32,000 nucleotides of DNA from Candidatus Saccharimonadota bacterium (GCA_016432445.1 CP066689.1:750001-782000); one strand, 5' to 3'; shown: positions 2,950 to 26,894, counted from the first letter of the stretch. Made by a program: numbers and translations. Notes: generated by a model not told the origin, from the sequence alone.

Positions 2950-3768
2950 ATGCAGGTTCATACACTAACACCCGAAGCTCCAGGTTTAAAGGCCTTAGGC
3001 TCCATTGATGCGCGAATGACGCCTGAAGACACTGTTGAGGCTATTGAAGCTTTAGGTTTGAATGTAATTGCAGTTACCGATCACAACGCTATCGACGGCG
3101 CCGTAACTGCTTTTAATCATGCTCAAAGACGTAATTATCAAGTTGAAATTTATATTGGTGAAGAAATCAGCACCCTTGACGGCCATATTATTGCTATAGG
3201 TATTGAAACTCCTATTGATAAACAACTATCAGGTGAAGAAACCATAAGAAGAATTATCAAACAGGGAGGAAAAGTTATCATTCCTCATCCAATGAGAAAA
3301 GGAGCTTTTGGTGAAGATAAAATCGCAGCTATCCTTAATCGTCAAAATCCAGAGTTGAAAATCCATGGAGTCGAGATTTTAAATGCTAGTTATTACAATG
3401 GTTCTCCTGAAATTGCTAATGAATTTTTGGGCGTTTTTTCGCAAAAATTTAAGGGACAAATCGCTCCCATTGGTTCAAGTGATAATCATAATTATACTCC
3501 TGCTAGAGCATTAACCGGATTTACGGGAAATTTTCTAGAAGCTTTAGAACAAAAAAACACTATTGTGGTTTATCCTGATATAATCGGACAGCTTCTAATT
3601 ATTCAGGCTGCTTGGCAAAAATTTGGAGATATCATCTCAAATAAATCTTTAAGATATTTTTTGGAGGGATTAATTGCTCAAAATTCTATACCGCCTGAAT
3701 TTAATCATTTGAGCCATTTAATAGATATCCCAGATGGAGGAAAGAGACCTCATGAGGTTTTGATTTAA
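2950..3768 (+). CDS. PHP-domain (polymerase/histidinol-phosphatase-like) metal-dependent phosphoesterase
   Basis: 272 aa. N-terminal MQVHT..., VIAVTDHNAIDGA and IIPHP motifs are typical of the PHP fold. An in-frame TGA lies immediately upstream, so ATG 2950 is the start. Confidence 0.7.
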   Translation: MQVHTLTPEAPGLKALGSIDARMTPEDTVEAIEALGLNVIAVTDHNAIDGAVTAFNHAQRRNYQVEIYIGEEISTLDGHIIAIGIETPIDKQLSGEETIRRIIKQGGKVIIPHPMRKGAFGEDKIAAILNRQNPELKIHGVEILNASYYNGSPEIANEFLGVFSQKFKGQIAPIGSSDNHNYTPARALTGFTGNFLEALEQKNTIVVYPDIIGQLLIIQAAWQKFGDIISNKSLRYFLEGLIAQNSIPPEFNHLSHLIDIPDGGKRPHEVLI

Positions 3769-5849
3769 AGTATAATTCTAGCGTCGGCAACAACCAATTT
3801 TTCCTCGTTTAAAAATAGAGGATTGATATCAATTTCTTTTATCTCTTTAAAATTTTCCATTAAATATCCGATTTTCGCAGATATATCGTATAACTTACGG
3901 ATATCCACAGATTTTGATCCCCGGAATCCTTTGAATAATTTTGCTAATTTAGTTTCTTCTATCATCTGCGTAAATCGTTTTTGCGAAAAAGGAAAAACCA
4001 GATAGTTTATTTCTTTTAAAAGTTCCGCATAAATGCCTCCTAAACCAACAACGATAACTACGCCAAAATTATTATCTCTTTTAGCTCCCAAAAAAATCTC
4101 ATGGCCTTTTACCATCTGCTGTATATAAATTCCTTTGGCTTTACCGGAAGCGGTTATTTTGTTGAATACTTCTTTAAGCTCAATCTCCGATTTAATTCCT
4201 GTTATCACACCGTTTACCTCAGTTTTATGGGTAATAATATCAGAAGCGATTTTTACAACTGCTGGATATTTGATCTTAGATTTTAAGTCTTGGATCTTTG
4301 ATTCAGAATCAAGAAATAGTAAATCTAGAACCGGAATATTTAATAGTTTAAAAAAGCTCATTGAATCTCCCAAGTTAAGAAAAGGCTTACTGAAATTATT
4401 GTTTAAAATATTTTTAATTTCTTGCTCTTGAAGTTTTATTGGTAAAGAATTTGATCTTAAACCGTTCTCATCATTTTGTTCACCGTGAAACTCCTGTCTT
4501 TGCAAAATTTTGGCTAAACATTGAGATAAAAAATCATAAGTCGAGAAACTGACCATTTTTTTCTCTTCAAAAAAAACGTGAGACTGGGCTACTGATTCTT
4601 CACCCATAAAAATTGGAAATATTGGCTTATCTAAATGACTTTGGTTTTCAGCGATAACTTCGGCCGTCTCAAAAATCTGCGTATTGGCTTGAGGCGTAAG
4701 AAGAACACCAATTGATCCAATATCTTTTTCCTGCATTGTTAATCCAATGGCTTGAGAATATTCAAAAGCGCTGGCGTCACCTAAAAGATCAATCGGATTA
4801 CGGATACTTATTTTTTTGTTTTCTCCGACAGTCGACGTTAATTCTTTTTCAGTTTCGGGAGAAATGGTAACAAGGGATAACTTATTTTTAACAATATCGT
4901 CGGTAAAAAGCACCCCCACACCACCGGCATTAGATAAAACCAGCAATGCCCGGTTGGTTGGAACACGATCATAACTGTATATTTTCAATATCGTCATAAA
5001 TTCTGTAAAAGTAAAAGCCCTTATAGCTCCGTTTTGATTAAACACCGCATCATATACCTGATCATCTCCAACTAATCCTCCGGTATGAGAGATTGCCGCT
5101 TTAGAACCTTCGGTTGTTGATCCGGCTTTCAAAATAACAATAGGTTTAATCTTAGCTGCTTTATTTAGCACATCCATAAATCTTTTTCCGTTTTTTACAT
5201 CTTCAAGATACATACCGATAACTTTTGTATTGCTGTCTTTTAGTAAAAATTCGAGAGCATCGGACTCATCAATATTGGTTTTATTTCCTAAACTTATAAA
5301 ATAGGAAAAACCTAAATTTTTATGACCGGCAAAATAATCAATAATCACACTGCCTAAAGCTCCTGACTGAGAAATGAAACCAATATTGCCTGAGGGTGAA
5401 ATATGTTTTAAAAAAGTCACATTAATATTTAATAACGTATTGATAAAACCAATACAGTTTGGACCTAAAAGATTAATATTGTATTTCTTTATTTTTTCAA
5501 TCAGCTCACTCTCAATTTCAACTCCATCTTTACCGATCTCTTTAAAGCCGGCAGCGAAAATAACGATATCTTTAATTCCCAATTGACCTATTTCATCAAT
5601 AAGCGATAAAGAAACGGCTGCGGGCGTCGCCAAAACAGCTAAATCAATTTTTTCTCCAACTTCAGAAAGACTTGGGTATACTTTTTTTCCCAAAATATCC
5701 TCTGAAGCATTTTTATTCACAAAATAAATCCTGCATTTGTATCCTTGATTAATTAAGTTATTAGCAACAAGATACCCAACTTTTTTTAAGTCATGGGAGA
5801 CACCAACTACAGCAATAGAGGAGGGATTAAATAATTTTTCAAAATCCAT
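3765..5849 (-). CDS. Acetate--CoA ligase (ADP-forming), fused alpha/beta (CoA-binding + ATP-grasp)
   Basis: 694 aa. N-terminus FNPSSIAVVGVS...VYPSL..V....DLAVLATPA is the classic CoA-binding domain, followed by a succinyl-CoA-synthetase-like flavodoxin domain and a C-terminal ATP-grasp. Confidence 0.85.
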   Translation of the reverse strand: MDFEKLFNPSSIAVVGVSHDLKKVGYLVANNLINQGYKCRIYFVNKNASEDILGKKVYPSLSEVGEKIDLAVLATPAAVSLSLIDEIGQLGIKDIVIFAAGFKEIGKDGVEIESELIEKIKKYNINLLGPNCIGFINTLLNINVTFLKHISPSGNIGFISQSGALGSVIIDYFAGHKNLGFSYFISLGNKTNIDESDALEFLLKDSNTKVIGMYLEDVKNGKRFMDVLNKAAKIKPIVILKAGSTTEGSKAAISHTGGLVGDDQVYDAVFNQNGAIRAFTFTEFMTILKIYSYDRVPTNRALLVLSNAGGVGVLFTDDIVKNKLSLVTISPETEKELTSTVGENKKISIRNPIDLLGDASAFEYSQAIGLTMQEKDIGSIGVLLTPQANTQIFETAEVIAENQSHLDKPIFPIFMGEESVAQSHVFFEEKKMVSFSTYDFLSQCLAKILQRQEFHGEQNDENGLRSNSLPIKLQEQEIKNILNNNFSKPFLNLGDSMSFFKLLNIPVLDLLFLDSESKIQDLKSKIKYPAVVKIASDIITHKTEVNGVITGIKSEIELKEVFNKITASGKAKGIYIQQMVKGHEIFLGAKRDNNFGVVIVVGLGGIYAELLKEINYLVFPFSQKRFTQMIEETKLAKLFKGFRGSKSVDIRKLYDISAKIGYLMENFKEIKEIDINPLFLNEEKLVVADARIIL

Positions 5850-5888: not shown

Positions 5889-5917
5889 TTGACAAAAAAT
5901 ATGCTTCCTGATAAAAT
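5889..5917 (+). promoter_or_regulatory. Sigma70-type promoter of the T-box leader
   Basis: TTGACA (5889-5894), 17 nt spacer, TAAAAT (5912-5917). Predicted TSS is near 5924, just upstream of Stem I. Confidence 0.5.
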
Positions 5918-5935
5918 ATGGGTACAGTTTGTTTA

Positions 5936-6305
5936 AAAGCTTTGATGGAGAAATAGTAGAAAATATCTTGTGACAACTGAGAAAAGTCGGTAGGGAGCAA
6001 GACTTTCGTAGAGATTTTTTCGAATTACCCTCCTGAGCTGTAAGCTAAAAATCTGCTTCGCCAGTTGGCGGATGCCGGAAAATAAGCTTAGCCGGGTTCG
6101 AACCGTGATAGCGAAAGAGTGTGTCGGCGTAAAAGTCGGAGCACTCGAGAAGAAGCGCTTATTGCGAAACTCGAGAGCACCCACACACGGGTGTTTTTTT
6201 TTGCAGTAATCGGAAGCAAGGTGGTACCGCGAGACCTCATAAGCCCTCGCCCTTGTCTGACTATCAATTAAAAGTTGGTAGATAGGCAGCGGCGAGGGTT
6301 TTTTT
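5936..6305 (+). promoter_or_regulatory. T-box riboswitch leader (tRNA-responsive transcription attenuator)
   Basis: Stem I base is a textbook K-turn. AGC(5938-40)/GCU(6037-39) forms the C-stem and UUU is the bulge. G5944.A6036 and A5945.G6035 are sheared pairs, followed by GGAG(5947-50)/CUCC(6030-33). AGUA S-turn at 5955-5958. Helix 5959-5968/6010-6019. GAGAA bulge at 5979-5983 and distal hairpin AAAGUC/GACUUU with loop GGUAGGGAGCAA (5989-6000). Specifier-loop 3' side is GAA-UUA-C (6022-6028). T-box sequence is AAGG-UGGUACC-GCGAG (6218-6233), closed by CUCGC-CCUU (6246-6254). Competing terminator CCCUCGCC (6244-6251)/GGCGAGGG (6291-6298) plus U7. Confidence 0.9.
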
Positions 6306-6318
6306 ATAGGAGGAAAAT

Positions 6319-7383
6319 ATGGAAAATCAAAAAATAGTCTGGTTTCAGGATGGAGTAAAGTTAAAAGCACCTAAAAGTCAGTGGGAAAAAATAGATTCTT
6401 TAAACCGGCAACTGATTAATTTAGCCGGCCATCCGTCCTTTGACCATCAAATTATCGAACCTGTTGAGTGCGTTAGAAATTTATTTAGTCAAATAAATTT
6501 TCACCAACATAGCGTTATTATTGATCTTTCAGGTATGTTTGGTGAAGATTTAAAAAAAACTTTTCCCAGATTACCAGTCGTTGATAACTTTAGACTCAGC
6601 CGAGTCAGAGTAATCACATCTCCAAGGCTCGACGGAGTGGGACATCTAATTACATTAAACAGTAAAGAATTAGCAGAATTAAAAAACTCTGCAGATTTAT
6701 CTCACCCTTTATTTATTGATGATATCTGCTGGTCAGGAAGAACAGCTTTAGATGCCGTTAAAATAATTGGAGCTGATCTATCAAATACTACTTTTGGTTT
6801 TTTAACTTTAAACCGCGGCAATTTTGGAGAAAGTGTTCCATGTCCTGTCCAAATATTTGAACAATCTGGAGCTAAAGTATTGAACGGCATAGCTGTTCAT
6901 ACACCTCAAGATGATGGCTTCCATTTAGCTGATTTTTTTGAAAACCCTTCTACTAGTAACCCTGATGTATTTGGTATTATTATCCGCATTCAAGAATTAC
7001 GAGAAAGAGCTGCAACAAGTGATGAAACAGCTAAAAAAACCTTAGAGGCAGAAATAAAAGGATTATTGTTAGAAAATCGAGAAGTACTTTTCCCAAGCTC
7101 AAGAAGTACACAAGAGATGAAAGAACTACAGGCAGAAGGTAGATTAATAGCTAATGGCGGAATTAATAAAAACTCTTTTTTTGATATTAATCCTCCAAAC
7201 TGGCTAATGCCTTCTTTCTCAAGAAGAGTTAATTCTCAAATGTTAAGAAACAGTAAAGCAGAAATAACAGATGTAATAAGGGAACTAAAATCAATAACCG
7301 AAAGTAGCCGTGAACTAAAAAAAGAACAAATATCTGAACCAAGTAATGAATTTTCAATAGCAAGGAGGTGCGAAACATTATAA
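6319..7383 (+). CDS. Phosphoribosyltransferase (type I PRT)-like protein, otherwise uncharacterised
   Basis: 354 aa. AGGAGG lies 5 nt upstream of the ATG. The only recognisable motif is the PRPP-loop-like HPLFIDDICWSGRTALDAV. The rest has no family I recognise. Confidence 0.55.
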   Translation: MENQKIVWFQDGVKLKAPKSQWEKIDSLNRQLINLAGHPSFDHQIIEPVECVRNLFSQINFHQHSVIIDLSGMFGEDLKKTFPRLPVVDNFRLSRVRVITSPRLDGVGHLITLNSKELAELKNSADLSHPLFIDDICWSGRTALDAVKIIGADLSNTTFGFLTLNRGNFGESVPCPVQIFEQSGAKVLNGIAVHTPQDDGFHLADFFENPSTSNPDVFGIIIRIQELRERAATSDETAKKTLEAEIKGLLLENREVLFPSSRSTQEMKELQAEGRLIANGGINKNSFFDINPPNWLMPSFSRRVNSQMLRNSKAEITDVIRELKSITESSRELKKEQISEPSNEFSIARRCETL

Positions 7384-7393
7384 AATAAAGCTT

Positions 7394-7921
7394 ATGAAAA
7401 AATTACAGACTGGTGTTATCGGCTCAATGGGTGATTCAAAGCTAGAACAGTCACTTATTGAAACAGCCAGTGAACTTGGAAAAGAAATTGCTAAAAATAA
7501 AGCCACGCTTCTTTTTGGATTTGAAGGCGACTTTAACTCGCTTTCTCAAATAGCGGCACGAAGCGCTCAAGATAACGGTGGAGATACAGTAGCTTTTTTA
7601 TGGGGCAATAAACAAATTGATCTTGGTAAACTAAAGTCAACACGTATTGTAAGCGGACAAAACCGGGGAGGAGGTAGGGAGTTTTCGTTTATTTTAAGCT
7701 GTGATGCTTTAATTTGTATAGGCGGTGGGTCAGGAACTTTAATGGAAATAGCCATGGCTTACCAAGCCAATATTCCGATTGTTGTTTTAAAGAACACTGG
7801 AGGCTGGAGCGAAAAATTAGCCAATCATTTTTTGGATACTCGCCAAAGATTAAAAATAATAGAAGCTAATAACGCTAAACATGCAATGGAAATTGTAATA
7901 AAATTGCTTAGTAAATCTTAA
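7394..7921 (+). CDS. LOG / TIGR00725-like Rossmann-fold (SLOG superfamily) nucleotide-binding protein
   Basis: 175 aa. VIGSMGD...LG..IAK N-terminus and ...SCDALICIGGGSGTLMEIAMAY...PIVVL (GGG.GT..E motif) are characteristic of the LOG/'lysine decarboxylase-like' family. Confidence 0.65.
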   Translation: MKKLQTGVIGSMGDSKLEQSLIETASELGKEIAKNKATLLFGFEGDFNSLSQIAARSAQDNGGDTVAFLWGNKQIDLGKLKSTRIVSGQNRGGGREFSFILSCDALICIGGGSGTLMEIAMAYQANIPIVVLKNTGGWSEKLANHFLDTRQRLKIIEANNAKHAMEIVIKLLSKS

Positions 7922-7925
7922 ATGC

Positions 7926-9026
7926 TTAGGCAGCTTGCTTTAAGGGAACAAGTCTATATGCAGTCATATGTTCATAAACATTTAGATCTTTTTGAAATCT
8001 AGAAATGGTTTTCTTCGCTAAAAGATTTTTTTGTCTTGGAGAAAGTTCACTCACATGTCCAGCATTCTGAATTACTTCTTGAGCCATCTCTTTTGCTAGT
8101 TTCATAATTTTGGAAACACGGCGAGACGCTTCTTCGACAGTAAGTTTATTTCCTCCTTTATCTTCAAATCTTTCCCCATCATCATCAAAAGCCCCCACCA
8201 TCCAGCTTACATCAGTGTCGATATCATGTCTTACTGTTTTTGTAACTACAGCTTCAGACGCATCCCAGCCTGCAGTTTGCACCATATTAGCTATAATTCC
8301 GTCCGGAATTCGATTAGACATCACCACTAATGCTTCCGTTCGCGGTGTAACGATCTTTCTAAGTTCAGTTAACACTGCAGCATAGAGAACTAAACCGTAA
8401 TTATCCCAAGGCTCCTTGTATGGTTCATATAACTCTTCATTTGAATCATAAGCATGTGAATGTGAAAAACTATCGGCTAAAGAAATAACAGTAGATTTCG
8501 ATTGCGGCAAAAAAGACTGAAATCTGCCATCAAAAAGTTCTTTTCCCCCATCTGCAATTTCCTGCCTCCAAGCTTGGAGATAATGTACTCCATCATCACG
8601 ATCAATACTAATATAAATATCTTTCTTTTTTATACGCGAGGCGAGAAAAGGATCTTTCCTTATATTATATTCTGCTAAACTCATCTCTTCTTTACCTCTA
8701 CTCATCCGAATAAATTTCGAACGATCAACTTCACAACCCATGGCCGCACTAATATGGTGATCTGCCTTAAGATAATCTGCTCCATCTCCAGCTCCAACTA
8801 CAAGAAGAGGAAAACCTTTCGATCTGTTTCTATCTGTTAAATACCAACCTCTACTAACCATCGCATCAATCGCCGGAAAATAAACCTCTTTTCTTCCCTC
8901 AGCTTTTAACCTGTAGGATCTATCCTCAACAAAACCATCAACTGGCCTTTGAACTATCATTTGGCCTGAAGGTCGTAGATCACGTAGAGTTAGAAAACAG
9001 TTCGGTTTTTCAGCTGATACTGCCAT
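7926..9026 (-). CDS. Orphan protein with a possible class-I SAM-dependent transferase / spermidine-synthase-like core
   Basis: 366-aa ORF, convergent with the LOG-like gene. PLLVVGAGDGADYL...AMGCEVD resembles motif I (G.GDG) plus the beta-2 acidic residue. Later LVLYAAVLTELRKIVTPRTEALVV resembles the MTase post-motif. The functional call is weak. Confidence 0.35.
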   Translation of the reverse strand: MAVSAEKPNCFLTLRDLRPSGQMIVQRPVDGFVEDRSYRLKAEGRKEVYFPAIDAMVSRGWYLTDRNRSKGFPLLVVGAGDGADYLKADHHISAAMGCEVDRSKFIRMSRGKEEMSLAEYNIRKDPFLASRIKKKDIYISIDRDDGVHYLQAWRQEIADGGKELFDGRFQSFLPQSKSTVISLADSFSHSHAYDSNEELYEPYKEPWDNYGLVLYAAVLTELRKIVTPRTEALVVMSNRIPDGIIANMVQTAGWDASEAVVTKTVRHDIDTDVSWMVGAFDDDGERFEDKGGNKLTVEEASRRVSKIMKLAKEMAQEVIQNAGHVSELSPRQKNLLAKKTISRFQKDLNVYEHMTAYRLVPLKQAA

Positions 9027-10139: not shown

Positions 10140-10694
10140 ATGATTACCACTTATCAGCATCTCGTCTGCGTCGCCGCCAAAGGTGATGTCCTAGCTGAAG
10201 AGATTCTCAAATACCTTAAAGGCAGTTTCAAGATCGCCGTAAGACTCATTGACCCGAACCATGAGAAAGCCGGACCGTTGGAAATAGTAATTTTCCAGCC
10301 AGAAGAAGGATGGCCGGGAAAAAATACTTTCACCTGCACGGCATTTTACCAGCTGGAAGAATCCACACCACAATGGGCAGCAGACAGCTTATTCCCTGTT
10401 GCCGTAAGGTTTCCCTTCGGCACTAACAAGATAAGGGAAAAACTATGGTACGCAACTGTTAACGTGGTTCGGCAAATAGAACTCTGGATCTGCAGTGATC
10501 GGCCGGTCGATACCACACCATGGGTAGGTTCACCAAAAGAACTCAGTGAAGACGTCAAAGGTAAAATCACAGTATGGCGCGCCCAGATAGACGGTATCAT
10601 GTCTCAAATCACAATCATGCCAATCCCTGACTTTCACCCTGTAAAGGAGCCAAAGTACAGTAGGAAAAGGAGCTTGGCCAGCTTAATCACCTAA
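10140..10694 (+). CDS. Orphan 184-aa protein with foreign-looking composition
   Basis: ORF-track entry with GGGAGGA 11 nt upstream. Many C/G-ending codons (gtc tgc gtc gcc gcc; cgc gcc cag) contrast with the A/T-ending codons of neighbouring genes. Trp-rich. No family recognised. Confidence 0.65.
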   Translation: MITTYQHLVCVAAKGDVLAEEILKYLKGSFKIAVRLIDPNHEKAGPLEIVIFQPEEGWPGKNTFTCTAFYQLEESTPQWAADSLFPVAVRFPFGTNKIREKLWYATVNVVRQIELWICSDRPVDTTPWVGSPKELSEDVKGKITVWRAQIDGIMSQITIMPIPDFHPVKEPKYSRKRSLASLIT

Positions 10695-11513: not shown

Positions 11514-11569
11514 TTAATACTTTTCTTTCAAAATTTTTGAGAAAGAAGTATCGCCAGTTATTAAAAAAA

Positions 11570-12742
11570 ATGGAAAAAAAATTACTTATATCTAAAGAAA
11601 CTCAACCATCGAAAACCATGGCCTATTTAGGACCAAACGGAACTTTTACAGAAATGGCTGCTGCCTTAGCTATGGATAAACTTGGAGGAGATATCCTTCC
11701 AATCCAAGCTAAAAACATTTCAGAGATCTTTAAAATGGTAGCTGATGGAACAACGGAACTAGGAATAGTACCGATTGAAAACTCTACGGATGGACCGGTT
11801 GGAGATACTTTAAAGAATCTCACCGATTTTGAGGGCACTTTTATTGGCGAAGTCGCCATTCCTATAAGTCATTCTCTATATTACCAGAGTGCCTGGCTAG
11901 TACAACACGTCGCCTCTAAAGATACTGCTTTAAGACAATGTCAAAAACATATCTCCAAATACCTCCCTGGACGCAATCTAATGAATGTCGATAGTACAGC
12001 CCTTGCTGTCCAAATGGCGGCTGCAGACCCAACCATAGCTGCTATTGGCAGCAAAATCGCCGCTGAAGCTCTTGGCCTTACTGAAAAATTTTGGCGAGTT
12101 GACGGAGTGGAGGATAATCCTTTAAATACGACTAGATTTGTAGTGATTTCCAAATCAAGAGAGGTGCACGAAGATCTGGAAAATAATAAAACTACTTTAC
12201 TTGTTCATATGAGAGATGAACCAGGAAGCTTAGCCAATTGTCTGCATGTTTTTTCCGAAAATAAAATTAATCTTACCCAAATTAAATCTTTTTTGAGAGA
12301 TGATCAGGGAGTCTCATTTCTTATATCAATTGATGGAGGAAACCATGAAGCTAGCGTTAAAAAAGCTTTTAATGATTTATATACTTACGCCAATTATCGA
12401 GTACTAGGATCATATGTAAAAGATGAAACAGAGTCTCAGGAAGATCAGGCAGATATCAATCAAATAGCCGACCAATTAAAAAGAGAGGCGGTAAATGGGA
12501 ATGGTATTGATCATGATGAAAGCGTTTTGGCTTTTACTCTTAAAGATGAAGTAGGCTCTTTGGAAAAAGTAGTCAGTATTTTTACCCAAAGGAAAATAAA
12601 TCTTACCCGTATCGATTCCATACCCACAGGAAGATTAAACGAATATGCATTCTATCTAGCTTTTAAAAACGGCATCCCCAACCATCAGGAACTGCTTGAT
12701 GAAGTAAAACTAGCCTGTAAAGAAATTGTGCAGATTGCTTAA
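11570..12742 (+). CDS. pheA: Prephenate dehydratase with two C-terminal ACT domains
   Basis: MAYLGPNGTFTEMAA, ...NTTRFVVI, and ACT-like TTLLVHMRDEPGSLANCLHVFSENKINLTQIKS. A second ACT-like segment is VLAFTLKDEVGSLEKVVSIFTQRKINLTRIDSIP. The start is uncertain: TTG 11537 in the track, ATG 11570, or ATG 11618 at MAYLG. Confidence 0.85.
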   Translation: MEKKLLISKETQPSKTMAYLGPNGTFTEMAAALAMDKLGGDILPIQAKNISEIFKMVADGTTELGIVPIENSTDGPVGDTLKNLTDFEGTFIGEVAIPISHSLYYQSAWLVQHVASKDTALRQCQKHISKYLPGRNLMNVDSTALAVQMAAADPTIAAIGSKIAAEALGLTEKFWRVDGVEDNPLNTTRFVVISKSREVHEDLENNKTTLLVHMRDEPGSLANCLHVFSENKINLTQIKSFLRDDQGVSFLISIDGGNHEASVKKAFNDLYTYANYRVLGSYVKDETESQEDQADINQIADQLKREAVNGNGIDHDESVLAFTLKDEVGSLEKVVSIFTQRKINLTRIDSIPTGRLNEYAFYLAFKNGIPNHQELLDEVKLACKEIVQIA

Positions 12743-23724: not shown

Positions 23725-24552
23725 ATGGCTATACGCCCAGTTTTTGAAAAAGAAGCTAACGAAGAAATAAAGAATCTTTATCGAAAACTTAAAGAAGCTC
23801 TTAAATTAGATTCTCTTCCTTTATTCTTTGCTTATCTTGGAGCTTTTCCTGAATATTTTCGCTACATTGCCCAACAAATAGATAATCTCGCTAAAAATCA
23901 TGAGTTTAATAAATTATGCGGTGAAACAGCAACCGAGATTGAAAAAGAATTAACTGAAAAACTGACAATCTCTGAGGAACTTGAAAATTGGCTTAACCGT
24001 TACAAATATTCTCCGGCTTTTTATAATTTTCAGAAAGATCTACAGCATATTTTTTTATCTAACGTTAAATTGACTTTTATATTCATCGCTTTAAGAGAAG
24101 CTGTCAAGGGATGGGCAGTTGCGTCCAAAAAACTTTCAGGTGAAGTAAAAATCAATGCGCAAACTGCCAAAGAGACTCCTCAGGAAGATTTTGTTTTCGA
24201 TGATACTTACGCTAAAAATTATTCTATTGAGGCAAGAAAAGGAGAGATTGCCGCAGCCGGAGAATCAGCCTTAGAAAAAGATCTGCTTCCTGAGTATTTA
24301 GTTTTATGCCGCAGAGATTTTATTGATGTTTTAAAAAATGAAGACTTTTTAAGATTAAGGGTTCAGATTGAGCAAAAATTCCTTAATGATCTTGCTCTTC
24401 TTCCAGAAAGTATTTATTCGCCAATCAATGTAGTTTTACAATATACTTCAAAATACCCTGACTTCCCCGATCTGCTTTATCTTCTAACCGAACATTTCCC
24501 CACCTATGCAGTCCAGCGCATGCTTTTCTCAGGGTACATGATAAAAGGATAG
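23725..24552 (+). CDS. Hypothetical protein
   Basis: 275-aa ORF, 5 nt after htrA. No family assigned with confidence. Confidence 0.55.
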   Translation: MAIRPVFEKEANEEIKNLYRKLKEALKLDSLPLFFAYLGAFPEYFRYIAQQIDNLAKNHEFNKLCGETATEIEKELTEKLTISEELENWLNRYKYSPAFYNFQKDLQHIFLSNVKLTFIFIALREAVKGWAVASKKLSGEVKINAQTAKETPQEDFVFDDTYAKNYSIEARKGEIAAAGESALEKDLLPEYLVLCRRDFIDVLKNEDFLRLRVQIEQKFLNDLALLPESIYSPINVVLQYTSKYPDFPDLLYLLTEHFPTYAVQRMLFSGYMIKG

Positions 24553-24576: not shown

Positions 24577-25821
24577 ATGGCAATCCAATTACAGCCGGTA
24601 AAAGGTTTTCGTGATTTATACCCAGCTGATAAGGCTTTGCAAAATTATGTTTTTGATAAGCTTAAAGCGGTGGCCTCCCTTTATGGCTTTGAAAATTATG
24701 ACGGACCAATCTTAGAACCGATTGAACTTTATTTAGGCAAGTCTTCCAAAGAACTAGTTGAAGAACAAACATTTAAAATAAAAGATAAGAAAGATCAAAC
24801 TTTGGTCATGAGACCAGAGATGACACCATCTTTAGCTCGTATGATAGCTCAAAAAGCTAATCAGCTGGTTTTCCCACTTAAACTCTTTAACCTAGGTTTA
24901 AGATTCCGTTATGAAGCTCCTCAAAAGGGAAGAGAACGTGAGTTTTATCAGGCTGATTTTGATATTTTAGGAACTGAAAATATATTGGCCGATGCAGAAA
25001 TTTTAGCGGCTGCGGTTAACATTTTTCTCAATCTTGGCGCGACCGAGAATGATTTTGTGATTTATATTAACTCACGAACTTTTGTTGACCGTAAATTAAC
25101 TGAGCTTGGTATAGAAAATAAAAAAGATATTATGTCTTGCATTGACCGTAAAGATAAAATAAGCCGGGAAGCTTTTCTTGAATCATTAAAAAAGGCAAGC
25201 TTAAATGAAAAACAGATTATTGATCTTGTTTCTTTTTTGGAATCGGAAATAAAACCGCAAGATGATGAGTATTTCAAAAAACTATTTAATATCTTAAAAA
25301 GATACGGCATTGATCAGTATTTTAAAATAAATAAAAATACCGTACGAGGTCTTGATTATTACACTGGTTTAGTTTTTGAAGCTAAGGATTTATCAGGAAA
25401 AATAAACAGAGCTCTTCTTGGCGGAGGCCGCTACGATAATCTCGTGTCAGCTTATAACCCCAACATAAAAGTACCGGGAATTGGTTTTGCCACTTCTGAT
25501 GTCATTCTTCTGGAATTTATTAAAATTATTAATAAAGCACCTCAATTAAATCCTTGCCCAACCAAATATCTAGTAACTATCTTCAGTCAAGAAACTTTAA
25601 ATGACTCCATTCAAATCTTAAATAAGTTAAGAAAACAAAATATTTCGGCAGAAATTTACCCTGATACTGAAAAAAAACTTGATAAACAATTAAAATATGC
25701 TGACAGAAACAATATCCCTTACGCCGTAATTGCCGGTCCTGAAGAAATTCAAAAAGGCATAGTTAAGGTCAAAGACATGAAAACAGGAGAACAGAAAGAA
25801 ATTAATATTTCAGATCTTTGA
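24577..25821 (+). CDS. hisS: Histidine--tRNA ligase
   Basis: VKGFRDLYP, MRPEMTPSLARM, FRYEAPQKGREREFYQADFDILG, GGGRYDNL. C-terminal anticodon-binding domain. Confidence 0.9.
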   Translation: MAIQLQPVKGFRDLYPADKALQNYVFDKLKAVASLYGFENYDGPILEPIELYLGKSSKELVEEQTFKIKDKKDQTLVMRPEMTPSLARMIAQKANQLVFPLKLFNLGLRFRYEAPQKGREREFYQADFDILGTENILADAEILAAAVNIFLNLGATENDFVIYINSRTFVDRKLTELGIENKKDIMSCIDRKDKISREAFLESLKKASLNEKQIIDLVSFLESEIKPQDDEYFKKLFNILKRYGIDQYFKINKNTVRGLDYYTGLVFEAKDLSGKINRALLGGGRYDNLVSAYNPNIKVPGIGFATSDVILLEFIKIINKAPQLNPCPTKYLVTIFSQETLNDSIQILNKLRKQNISAEIYPDTEKKLDKQLKYADRNNIPYAVIAGPEEIQKGIVKVKDMKTGEQKEINISDL

Positions 25822-25861
25822 TCTTCGACATTCGATAATCGAAAATCTAAAATCATAAACT

Positions 25862-26551
25862 ATGCAGGTAAATCCTAATATCGTTATTATCGAAACTCAT
25901 CAGGGCGCAGGAGGCGATGAATCAAAACTCTGGGCAAAAGAGCTTCTCTTGTCATATGTTAGATTTGCTCAAAGAAGAGGATTCAAATTTACTTACCTTG
26001 ATGATTATATTGTAAAAATCTCAGGAGAAAATGCATTCAATCTATATAAAAATGAAACTGGCGTTCATAGAGTTCAAAGAGTACCGGCAACCGAAAGAAA
26101 AGGCAGAATCCATACATCTACAGCTGTAATCGTCGTCCTTCCTCAAATAATTCAATCAGATATAAGAATTAACCAAGCTGACCTGGATTGGCAATTTTAC
26201 AGAAGCGGCGGCCATGGCGGACAAAACGTCAATAAGGTAGAAACAGCCGTCAGGTTAACCCATAAACCAACTGGAGTAGTCGTCACTTCAAGCCAAGAAA
26301 GATATCAGCAAGCCAACCGCCAAATTGCTCTTGAACTTTTGGCCAGTAAACTTTATCAGCTTGAGGAGGAAAAAAAGAAAGGTATGATGTTTTCATATGT
26401 TACTAATGTTGGTACCGGAGAACGCGCCGAAAAAATCCGCACTTATAACTTTCCTCAAAACAGATTAACCGACCACCGCTCCGGCAAAAGTTTTCACAAT
26501 CTGGAAGAAATTATCGAGCAGGGAAAATGGGACAAAGTCTTTGGAATTTGA
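25862..26551 (+). CDS. prfA: Peptide chain release factor 1-type protein lacking N-terminal domain 1
   Basis: 229 aa. PAT tripeptide in [18 protein letters not shown] (RF1-type PxT) and GGQ in [17 protein letters not shown]. The sequence begins at the domain-2 'AGGDES' region. Confidence 0.8.
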
Positions 26552-26591
26552 ATTGAAATTTCACGACTAATCTGCTAAAATGGAATTTCTT

Positions 26592-26894
26592 ATGAAAGCA
26601 AAGATTCATCCAACATATTTCCCGGAGGCCAAGGTCGTTTGTTCGTGTGGTAATACTTTTACCACCGGATCAACAAAAGAACACATTAAGGCTGACGTCT
26701 GTCACAAATGCCATCCTTACTACACAGGCGAACACAGATTCCTCGATACTAAAGGCCGCGTGGAGAAATTTCAGATAAAACAAAAACAAGCTAAAGAATA
26801 TAAAGAAAAGACCGCCTCCAAAAAAGCTAAAACAGAAGAACAAAAAGAAAGAGAAACTAAATCTTTACGAGAACTTTTGGAAGAAAGCAAGTAA
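26592..26894 (+). CDS. rpmE: 50S ribosomal protein bL31 with Lys/Glu-rich C-terminal extension
   Basis: [28 protein letters not shown]...[10 protein letters not shown]. The track ORF starts 4 codons earlier, at 26580. Confidence 0.85.

Follow-up and report, generated by a model that had tools for sequence, protein, structure and literature searches.

T-boxes are among the most reliable guilt-by-association markers, and nearly every gene behind one serves the supply of the cognate amino acid. In a 32,000-nucleotide (nt) stretch of DNA assigned to a Candidatus Saccharimonadota bacterium (GCA_016432445.1 CP066689.1:750001-782000, hereafter the window), positions 5889-7921 contain a T-box leader that precedes a gene for a 354-amino-acid (aa) protein resembling phosphoribosyltransferases (PRTs) and a gene for a 175-aa SLOG protein. 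The 354-aa product is identical to the NCBI protein HYW86_04020 of Candidatus Roizmanbacteria, in the Microgenomates group of Patescibacteria (the candidate phyla radiation, CPR). Judged from sequence and comparative data, it is very likely that this region is a two-gene operon gated by a tyrosine-specific T-box riboswitch. All features given below are on the plus strand unless otherwise stated. Loci of relatives are designated L001-L035 (L005, L010 and L035 being the same locus), and coordinates given with an L-number belong to that locus.

A scan of the whole window against Rfam at gathering thresholds gave zero matches. The T-box surfaced only in a permissive scan, where positions 5933-6257 matched RF00230 with 86.3 bits (E 1.9e-19), untruncated over model positions 1-219. 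The silence of the stricter scan is due to this score being 7 bits under the curated gathering score of 93 bits, and the shortfall arises from a 25-nt insertion in Stem II together with 84 nt in place of the model's 13-nt Stem III loop. Eleven further leaders, each directly upstream of an orthologue of the 354-aa gene, score 62.6-101.9 bits, four of them above the gathering score (95, 100, 98.7 and 101.9 bits). The whole window leader folds better than its shuffles (z -5.5). An earlier note, made from the sequence of the window alone, had listed the hallmark T-box parts, had named a failure of the covariance model to score the region as a refutation, and had asked whether the gene order recurs in related genomes; the parts are all readable and align to RF00230 with high posterior probability, the model does score the region, and the T-box with its PRT-like gene is found again in relatives. 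Membership of the T-box family can be regarded as established in substance, despite the sub-threshold score, for a leader of the transcriptional type that starts at model position 1 and runs through the U-tract of the terminator (5933-6305).

Stem I (5939-6038), as placed by structure-aware alignment to RF00230, is built on a K-turn base, GC-UUUGAUGG / CCUGAGC, that reads GC/UGA...UGA/GC, and continues through the AGUA S-turn and a specifier loop containing GAAUUACC to the AG bulge UGAGAA and the distal loop GGUAGGGAGCAAG. K-turn, S-turn specifier loop, AG bulge and distal loop are kept in 11 of the 12 leaders. Stem I is shortened in L005, whose leader (3590-3840, 62.6 bits) misses the distal part over about 46 alignment columns and may be a shortened Stem I variant. 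Stem II (6041-6090) carries a hairpin insertion of about 25 nt that is found in the window only, being missing from the 11 other leaders, and is followed by the Stem IIA region (6093-6105), located by alignment and fold. An extra hairpin, GAGUGUGUCGG...CGGAGCACUC (6117-6146), lies between Stem IIA/B and Stem III; it is outside the Rfam consensus and is conserved in all 12 leaders, with UGUGUC and GGAGCA invariant.

Stem III is defined by the RRRNG-Stem III-AA motif (PMC7778990), here AGAAG at 6151-6155 and AA at 6214-6215, and is enlarged (6151-6215). Its outer helix pairs 6156-6165 with 6203-6212 and encloses an inner GC hairpin plus U9 at 6173-6202. The earlier note had seen this internal hairpin and its U9; their presence stands, but not as a separate element, since they form the apical part of the enlarged stem. 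Single-sequence folding of the 12 leaders yields this nested Stem III in each case, its outer helix differing in sequence between them, and in all 12 the 3' strand of the inner hairpin enters an invariant U-run of at least five U. RNAalifold predicted no structure for the Stem III region from the MAFFT alignment, which was poor, and for this reason the single-sequence folds were used instead. Situated just ahead of the antiterminator, the inner hairpin with its U-run resembles a terminator or a pause signal.

The antiterminator (6217-6255, -9.9 kcal/mol) contains the T-box sequence AAGGUGGUACCGCGAG at 6218-6233, with columns invariant in the 12 leaders, and a 7-nt bulge UGGUACC at 6222-6228, of which UGGU (6222-6225) is complementary to the tRNA 3' end ACCA. 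The intrinsic terminator (6241-6305, -35.9 kcal/mol) ends in U7 at 6299-6305; a simple terminator scan missed it because its apical part is long. The two structures share strand 6241-6255, which is both the 3' strand of the antiterminator and the 5' arm of the terminator. The overlap of the UGGUACC-bulged antiterminator with the U7 terminator, as first described, is upheld by the alignment and the fold energies, and the arrangement is the one usual for T-boxes, where the antiterminator prevails only with the help of tRNA.

The identity of the sensed amino acid depends on how the specifier loop is read. The earlier note had given UUA (leucine), or UAC (tyrosine) if shifted by one base, and it is the second reading that holds. 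The codon UAC occupies 6026-6028, with GAA-U (6022-6025) on its 5' side and, on its 3' side, C6029 and then the closing helix CUCC (6030-6033). According to the rule used by TBDB, the specifier is the three bases ending one base before the loop closes (PMC7778990), which in the window is UAC. In the 12-leader alignment UAC is invariant, while the preceding base is U, A or G; even in L009 and L029, which have extra bases after GAA, UAC still lies one base before the closing helix. The tyrosine tRNA itself is found at one of these loci: L023 carries a tRNA-Tyr(GUA) gene with discriminator A73 at 3883-3969, two bases past the T-box terminator and before the PRT-like gene, where the specifier UAC fits the anticodon GUA and UGGU fits A73-CCA, in keeping with the predicted match of the UGGU bulge to a tRNA with A73. 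The T-box of L023 may control transcription of its own ligand tRNA-Tyr, unless the gene has an internal promoter.

That the leader could be a leucine T-box with specifier UUA follows from a strict reading of the window as GAA and then the codon, and tRNA-Leu also has A73. Nonetheless, UAC is constant while the UUA triplet is not, its first base being A in L023 and G in L012, and genes linked to the module include tyrS and tRNA-Tyr but never a leucine gene. A leucine specifier was rejected on the comparative data from the 12 leaders and is exceedingly improbable. The base 3' of UAC, with the closing helix next, is C in eight leaders, G in two, U in one and A in one. The departure from the usual purine that had been remarked in the window thus extends to 9 of the 12 leaders, and the frequent pyrimidine after the specifier codon is a real, lineage-specific deviation.

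Upstream of the leader lies a predicted sigma-70-like promoter (5889-5917), with -35 TTGACA at 5889-5894, a 17-nt spacer and an extended -10 TGaTAAAAT at 5909-5917; as a consensus match it agrees at 11 of 12 positions and has the TG of the extended -10. The leader between this site and the PRT-like gene is about 380 nt long, and a putative ribosome-binding site AGGAGG, read from the sequence, is found at 6308-6313, 5 nt 5' of the ATG. The two open reading frames (ORFs) are where they had been placed before, the PRT-like gene at 6319-7383 (354 aa) and the SLOG cluster-4 gene at 7394-7921 (175 aa), and are co-directional. A convergent gene starts 5 nt past the SLOG ORF, and the transcription unit here is therefore two genes only.

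On this arrangement, RNA polymerase would start near 5925 and transcribe the leader, meeting the inner hairpin and U-run before the outer helix of Stem III can close; the enlarged Stem III may thus be a pause or assembly element that gives the tRNA time to dock before the decision point. By the established mechanism of T-boxes, Stem I would bind tRNA-Tyr through pairing of UAC (6026-6028) with the anticodon GUA. When the tRNA is uncharged, its ACCA end would pair with UGGU (6222-6225) and stabilise the weak antiterminator, allowing read-through into the PRT-like and SLOG genes. When tRNA-Tyr is charged, the -36 kcal/mol terminator (6241-6305) would form and transcription would stop.

The protein encoded by the first gene matches no Pfam or NCBIfam family at E <= 0.01, no sequence in the PDB and no PADLOC model. 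Motif-level matches only are obtained, to PRTase-CE for the window protein (13.7 bits) and to Pribosyltran for two relatives (12.5-13 bits), and distant members of the family touch PF00156 and PF24390. The family is small: 53 relatives came from 5.8 billion clusters, and a profile search run exhaustively over 1.84 billion representatives gave 92. All the named relatives are Patescibacteria, mainly Microgenomates, as are the named contigs bar one, which is labelled Gammaproteobacteria. The putative phosphoribosyl pyrophosphate (PRPP) loop LFIDDICWSGRT (residues 130-142) matches the pattern of the PRT core, with four hydrophobic residues, DD, three variable positions and S/T-G-x-T; D134, W138, S139 and G140 are invariant, and D135, R141 and T142 occur in at least 90% of sequences. 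The motifs DDGFHxxDF, NxGxF and, at the C-terminus, NPPNWLMPSF are also invariant.

An AlphaFold (AF2) model built from 25 sequences reached a predicted local distance difference test score (pLDDT) of 90.5 and a predicted TM-score (pTM) of 0.86. Its best PDB matches in Foldseek are all type I PRTs, namely XGPRT, UPRT, OPRT and, as the best, 5vog, a PRT-fold protein bound to guanosine tetraphosphate (ppGpp). The probability of these matches is 0.99-1.0, but the E-values are weak (about 1e-3), with about 160 residues covered and target-normalised TM-scores of about 0.35-0.57. The helical C-terminal half, of about 130 residues and followed by a disordered tail, has no structural match. The PRPP-loop motif reported for this ORF is therefore part of an intact loop on a PRT fold that fits no curated family. 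The protein is termed PRT-like, and not a member of PF00156, since it lies below the Pfam gathering score. It probably binds PRPP or a ribose-5-phosphate group, as the modelled fold and loop suggest. The gene is split in L003, L024 and L030 (about 4797-5042) by a frameshift at the same place, near codon 275, which leaves a 62-aa second ORF, and a different frameshift lies near codon 75 in L006 (4219-4266). These splits may reflect sequencing error, decay or a conserved frameshift.

The 175-aa protein matches PF18306 with 84.9 bits against a cut-off of 26.3 (E 5.8e-24) and contains RGGGRE and GGGSGTLME; in a set of 19 orthologues, RGGGRE and the pattern GGSGTLxE do not vary. It reaches neither TIGR00725 (84.4 bits, cut-off 106.9) nor the LOG models (TIGR00730, 23.6 against 96.35; NF058542, 20.3 against 300). 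The earlier description of a LOG/TIGR00725-type SLOG protein holds as far as SLOG and the likeness to TIGR00725 are concerned, but a canonical LOG it is not. Its nearest solved relatives are TM1055 (1rcu) and the Chlamydomonas molybdenum cofactor (Moco) carrier protein (2iz5). The LOG-like motif does not prove catalysis, since the Moco carrier protein, which is no enzyme, has these positions conserved too. With scores under the TIGR00725 and LOG cut-offs and these nearest relatives, the hydrolysis of nucleoside monophosphates that had been ascribed to the protein must be taken as inferred; from its sequence, hydrolase activity is plausible. The SLOG subfamily is much commoner than the PRT-like family.

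A survey of synteny covered about 26 distinct loci, and across these the PRT-like gene is the sole constant, with the SLOG gene after it in most. L022 has a HAD-IIB phosphatase and an IU nucleoside hydrolase in place of SLOG, which by analogy would amount to the same net chemistry as a LOG-type enzyme. A PfkB kinase occurs in L009, L028 and L032, and the combination of a kinase with a nucleotide glycosidase would likewise follow the logic of pseudouridine catabolism. The operon of L032 contains HAD, PfkB, SLOG, an unknown gene and prephenate dehydratase under a tyrosine leader. Judged by family, every partner is suited to turning over N-ribosyl 5'-phosphates, and their chemistry is that of ribosyl or nucleotide salvage. 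A defence or conflict system was also considered and rejected, on account of the lack of PADLOC matches and the housekeeping neighbours.

Of the aminoacyl-tRNA synthetase genes that adjoin the module, tyrS follows the pair in L001, L006, L015, L018, L023 and L029 and precedes it in L032. The TyrRS is of the bacterial type in L001, L018, L023 and L029 and of the archaeal type in L006 and L015, and that of L023 is fused to a YbaK-type editing domain. In five loci hisS comes after the pair; these form one clade on a rough neighbour-joining tree that also holds a T-box plus tyrS locus. The same rough tree suggests T-box-PRT-SLOG-tyrS as the ancestral order. The statement that the T-box controls the pair instead of a synthetase is thus right for this genome, but not for its relatives, where tyrS adjoins in seven loci and hisS in five. 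A T-box before the PRT-like gene with no downstream tyrS is found in at least five lineages (the window, L002, L005, L007 and L022).

The loci linked to hisS have a second, distantly PRT-like protein of about 305 aa encoded between SLOG and hisS (L003 5669-6601; L030 5687-6601; L027 5713-6624). It has a PRPP loop VLVDDVVFSG and a weak match to PF24390 (PRTase-CE), and shares only the PRPP loop with the 354-aa family. A 275-aa ORF that lies before hisS in the window (23725-24552) was considered as its counterpart and rejected, there being no meaningful similarity.

Twelve loci that lack a T-box have a different kind of leader. Within about 150 nt upstream of the operon, each has a short ORF with a run of Tyr codons or of Tyr and His codons, ending in or next to GGCGG, which is able to pair with the CCGCC arm of the U7 terminator that follows. 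Examples of the tyrosine leader peptides are MKSFDNKKQLTWSVSYYYYQLLYGG..., MKIKSSSVSVYYYTS and MANIFEKLNNYYYSTVR, and the runs include ...SYYYYQLLYGG, VYYYTS and NNYYYST; those of the hisS clade read ...AYHYYTT..., ...SYHHYTTS..., ...IHHYYYAA and ...NWHYYSLA. Dinucleotide shuffles give a chance expectation for such codon runs of 0.02-0.10 per locus. Some peptides also have Asn codons, Asp codons never occur in the runs, and His codons are confined to the clade that has hisS in the operon. Loci with no tyrS (L004, L024 and the hisS clade) still have Tyr codons, as does L032, in which tyrS is outside the regulated unit, upstream of the leader.

Tandem units of leader ORF and attenuator occur in L015 (216-266 and 340-432), L006 (3648-3728 and 3897-3959) and L017 (3714-3764 and 3842-3919). 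The other leader ORFs lie at L019 21-95, L004 3881-3928, L003 3879-3938, L030 3866-3940, L024 3870-3941 and L027 3849-3896, in L008 ending at 3939, and at about 1801-1848 in L028 and 2143-2196 in L032. L006, L015 and L032 gave no T-box, even with permissive filters, and L015 scores 34.8 bits against the Rfam Phe_leader (RF01859), below the family threshold. No description of this attenuator family was found. These ORFs are predicted to be classical ribosome-stalling attenuators. The comparison shows the PRT-like gene under what the sequences indicate to be tyrosine-charging control by two unrelated sensors, a T-box in 12 lineages and a leader peptide in 12 others. The convergence of these sensors on the same gene argues against the pair being mere passengers, and for a link to tyrosine that is under selection.

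What the module would do for tyrosine is less certain. It is quite possible, though short of probable, that the PRT-like protein and its partners (SLOG, HAD phosphatase, PfkB, nucleoside hydrolase) form an undescribed pathway of Patescibacteria that is needed specifically under poor charging of tRNA-Tyr (in one clade of tRNA-His as well), and that has been recruited twice to charging control. If so, new nucleotide or ribosyl chemistry would feed the supply of tyrosine and histidine, either by release of ribose-5-phosphate or PRPP or through another ribosylated compound. A more specific proposal, possible but rather doubtful, is that the module answers a shortage of tyrosine, or in one clade of tyrosine and histidine, by freeing ribose-5-phosphate or PRPP from scavenged nucleotides, with the PRT-like enzyme and its interchangeable partners turning over N-ribosyl 5'-phosphates. 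Two amino-acid families have pentose phosphates as their source, the aromatic one via erythrose-4-phosphate and histidine via PRPP. A role in pentose supply is proposed because the Tyr and His signals belong to these families, and because the operon of L032 encodes a prephenate dehydratase, as does the window 3.6 kb downstream of its own operon (11537-12742).

Several points weigh against these interpretations. The window leader stands below the curated Rfam threshold, by the 7 bits already mentioned; the base after its specifier codon is C where T-boxes usually have a purine; and no tRNA gene lies within the window, so that the match to tRNA-Tyr is seen in the relative L023 only. As for function, a PRT building nucleotides alongside a glycosidase breaking them down would amount to a futile cycle if the PRT did not run towards PRPP or use another substrate, and hydrolase activity is not assured in a SLOG clade that has a carrier protein without enzymatic activity among its members. 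In bacteria of this group most amino-acid synthesis is usually missing, and pentose supply does not explain why tyrosine is the signal rather than phenylalanine or tryptophan.

One rival to a function of the pair in tyrosine supply is that the T-box serves tyrS, that the PRT-like and SLOG genes are passengers, and that tyrS has moved away in this genome, a course of events made conceivable by the six relatives with tyrS after the pair and by the ancestral order that the rough tree suggests. It is nonetheless unlikely, for the T-box is kept before the PRT-like gene in the five or more lineages with no downstream tyrS, Tyr leader peptides persist where tyrS is missing or outside the unit (L004, L024, the hisS clade and L032), and two evolutionary types of TyrRS stand behind the same pair. 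The pair might instead be a transcriptional stand-in for the stringent response, in which uncharged tRNA directly induces enzymes that reduce or remodel the nucleotide pool, much as ppGpp acts through PRTs and the LOG-like nucleosidase PpnN in E. coli. The established targets of ppGpp include type I PRTs and a nucleosidase of the LOG family, the best structural match of the PRT-like protein (5vog) was crystallised with ppGpp, and both kinds of sensor report uncharged tRNA or stalled ribosomes. A general starvation brake, however, should not be tied to one amino acid or co-transcribed with its synthetase, which leaves this account improbable too; it overlaps with the pathway proposed above and differs from it mainly in purpose.

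The adjoining synthetases, TyrRS and HisRS, both serve queuosine-bearing tRNAs, and from this a salvage of queuine or 7-deazaguanine for tRNAs with GUN anticodons can be imagined, in which SLOG, or HAD plus nucleoside hydrolase, frees the base from queuosine nucleotides. The nucleoside hydrolase that replaces SLOG in L022 echoes the queuosine hydrolases of that family, and some leader peptides have Asn codons. Yet a T-box senses charging and not modification, His codons appear only with hisS in the operon and Asp codons never, which is the logic of amino acids and not of queuosine, no tgt or que gene was seen at any of the about 26 loci, and no role of a PRPP-dependent enzyme is known in queuine salvage; this explanation is accordingly quite improbable. 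Less probable still is detoxification of a nucleoside-type inhibitor of TyrRS or HisRS, in which uncharged tRNA would induce cleavage of a glycosidic bond. T-box-controlled resistance copies of synthetases are known, and the partner enzymes all act on ribosyl compounds; but the genes show no pattern of transport or resistance, defence and conflict libraries gave no match, there is no candidate inhibitor, and the idea is pure inference.

The surroundings of the module contain further features. Two ORFs sit between the operon and the prephenate dehydratase gene of the window, one of 366 aa on the minus strand (7926-9026) with no match in Pfam, NCBIfam or PADLOC, and one of 184 aa on the plus strand (10140-10694) with no match in Pfam. 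Farther downstream, at 24577-26894, are hisS, a 229-aa release-factor ORF and rpmE; the release-factor ORF has only part of the PCRF domain and is possibly prfB with a programmed frameshift. The hisS-L31 neighbourhood is seen again behind the module in L030. In L024, the leader ORF and the PRT-like gene are immediately preceded by a match to bacterial RNase P RNA (3497-3818), which at 60.2 bits (E 6e-16) stays under the gathering score of 100. L022, from Daviesbacteria, has a SAM-I riboswitch on the minus strand (8513-8619, 56.5 bits, above gathering) before an S-adenosylmethionine synthetase gene.

The riboswitch mechanism and the SLOG and PRT folds are known already, while the regulon content, the enlarged Stem III and the exchange of T-box and Tyr leader peptide in Patescibacteria are new. 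No literature was found that links a T-box to a PRT/SLOG-type gene pair or that combines T-box, tRNA and Patescibacteria, and the literature on PRTase-CE and TM1055/LDcluster4 yielded nothing useful. As far as the searchable literature shows, the link between this chemistry and a T-box is undescribed, as had been supposed, and the 354-aa protein is no known component of amino-acid pathways or transport. The constant target of the T-box is a protein family without annotation, with 92 clusters among 1.8 billion, in ultra-small uncultured bacteria. The convergence of two sensors gives a concrete handle on the enzyme pair, two small soluble proteins that can be approached with PRPP and a nucleotide panel. 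T-boxes with an unusual Stem III and attenuators of the Tyr and Tyr/His kinds are added to a phylum where the searchable literature showed neither.

Comparison with known systems places the parts of this module. The 354-aa protein has the core fold and PRPP-binding loop of type I PRTs (XGPRT, UPRT and OPRT; PF00156), but is twice as long, with an N-terminal extension, the unmatched helical C-terminal half and the unique motifs DDGFHxxDF and NPPNWLMPSF, and its sequence similarity is below every family threshold. The 175-aa protein has the Rossmann-like SLOG fold in common with LOG/PpnN and with TM1055 and the Moco carrier of SLOG cluster 4, its GGGSGTLME resembling PGGxGTxxE and its RGGGRE holding the conserved Arg; unlike LOG/PpnN, it is far below the equivalog models and has nearest solved relatives without demonstrated hydrolase activity. 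The pairing of the two genes recalls the SLOG-PRTase pairs of the YpsA family, the only such pairing noted in the searchable literature, in which a SLOG gene is strongly coupled to a PRTase gene in a two-gene unit of unknown function (PMC6459960). YpsA, however, is not of cluster 4, has no link to tRNA sensing or synthetases, and has been read as part of nucleotide signalling or conflict, which is unsupported here.

The leaders of the relatives that lack a T-box share with the pheST, pheA and his attenuators of E. coli (Phe_leader, RF01859) a run of signalling codons, alternative hairpins and a terminator. They differ in their Tyr or Tyr and His codons, in their CPR host and in not being found in the window, and the likeness is one of mechanism and not of membership. 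A canonical T-box with a conserved, lineage-restricted extra stem near the decision domain is known from staphylococcal glyS, where stem Sa is reported to belong to the terminator/antiterminator domain (PMC9177973); here the insertions are in Stem III and Stem II. Among the closest counterparts of the window leader is the founding T-box, that of Bacillus subtilis tyrS, which has the same order of Stem I, II, IIA/B and III before an antiterminator with a UGGN bulge that competes with a terminator, the same UAC specifier and the same UGGU/A73 discriminator logic. Set against it, the leader described here occurs in Patescibacteria and not in Firmicutes, has a pyrimidine after the codon in 9 of its 12 versions, a Stem III of about 57 nt with inner hairpin and invariant U-run, and an extra hairpin before Stem III, and the first genes under its control encode neither a synthetase nor a biosynthetic enzyme nor a transporter.

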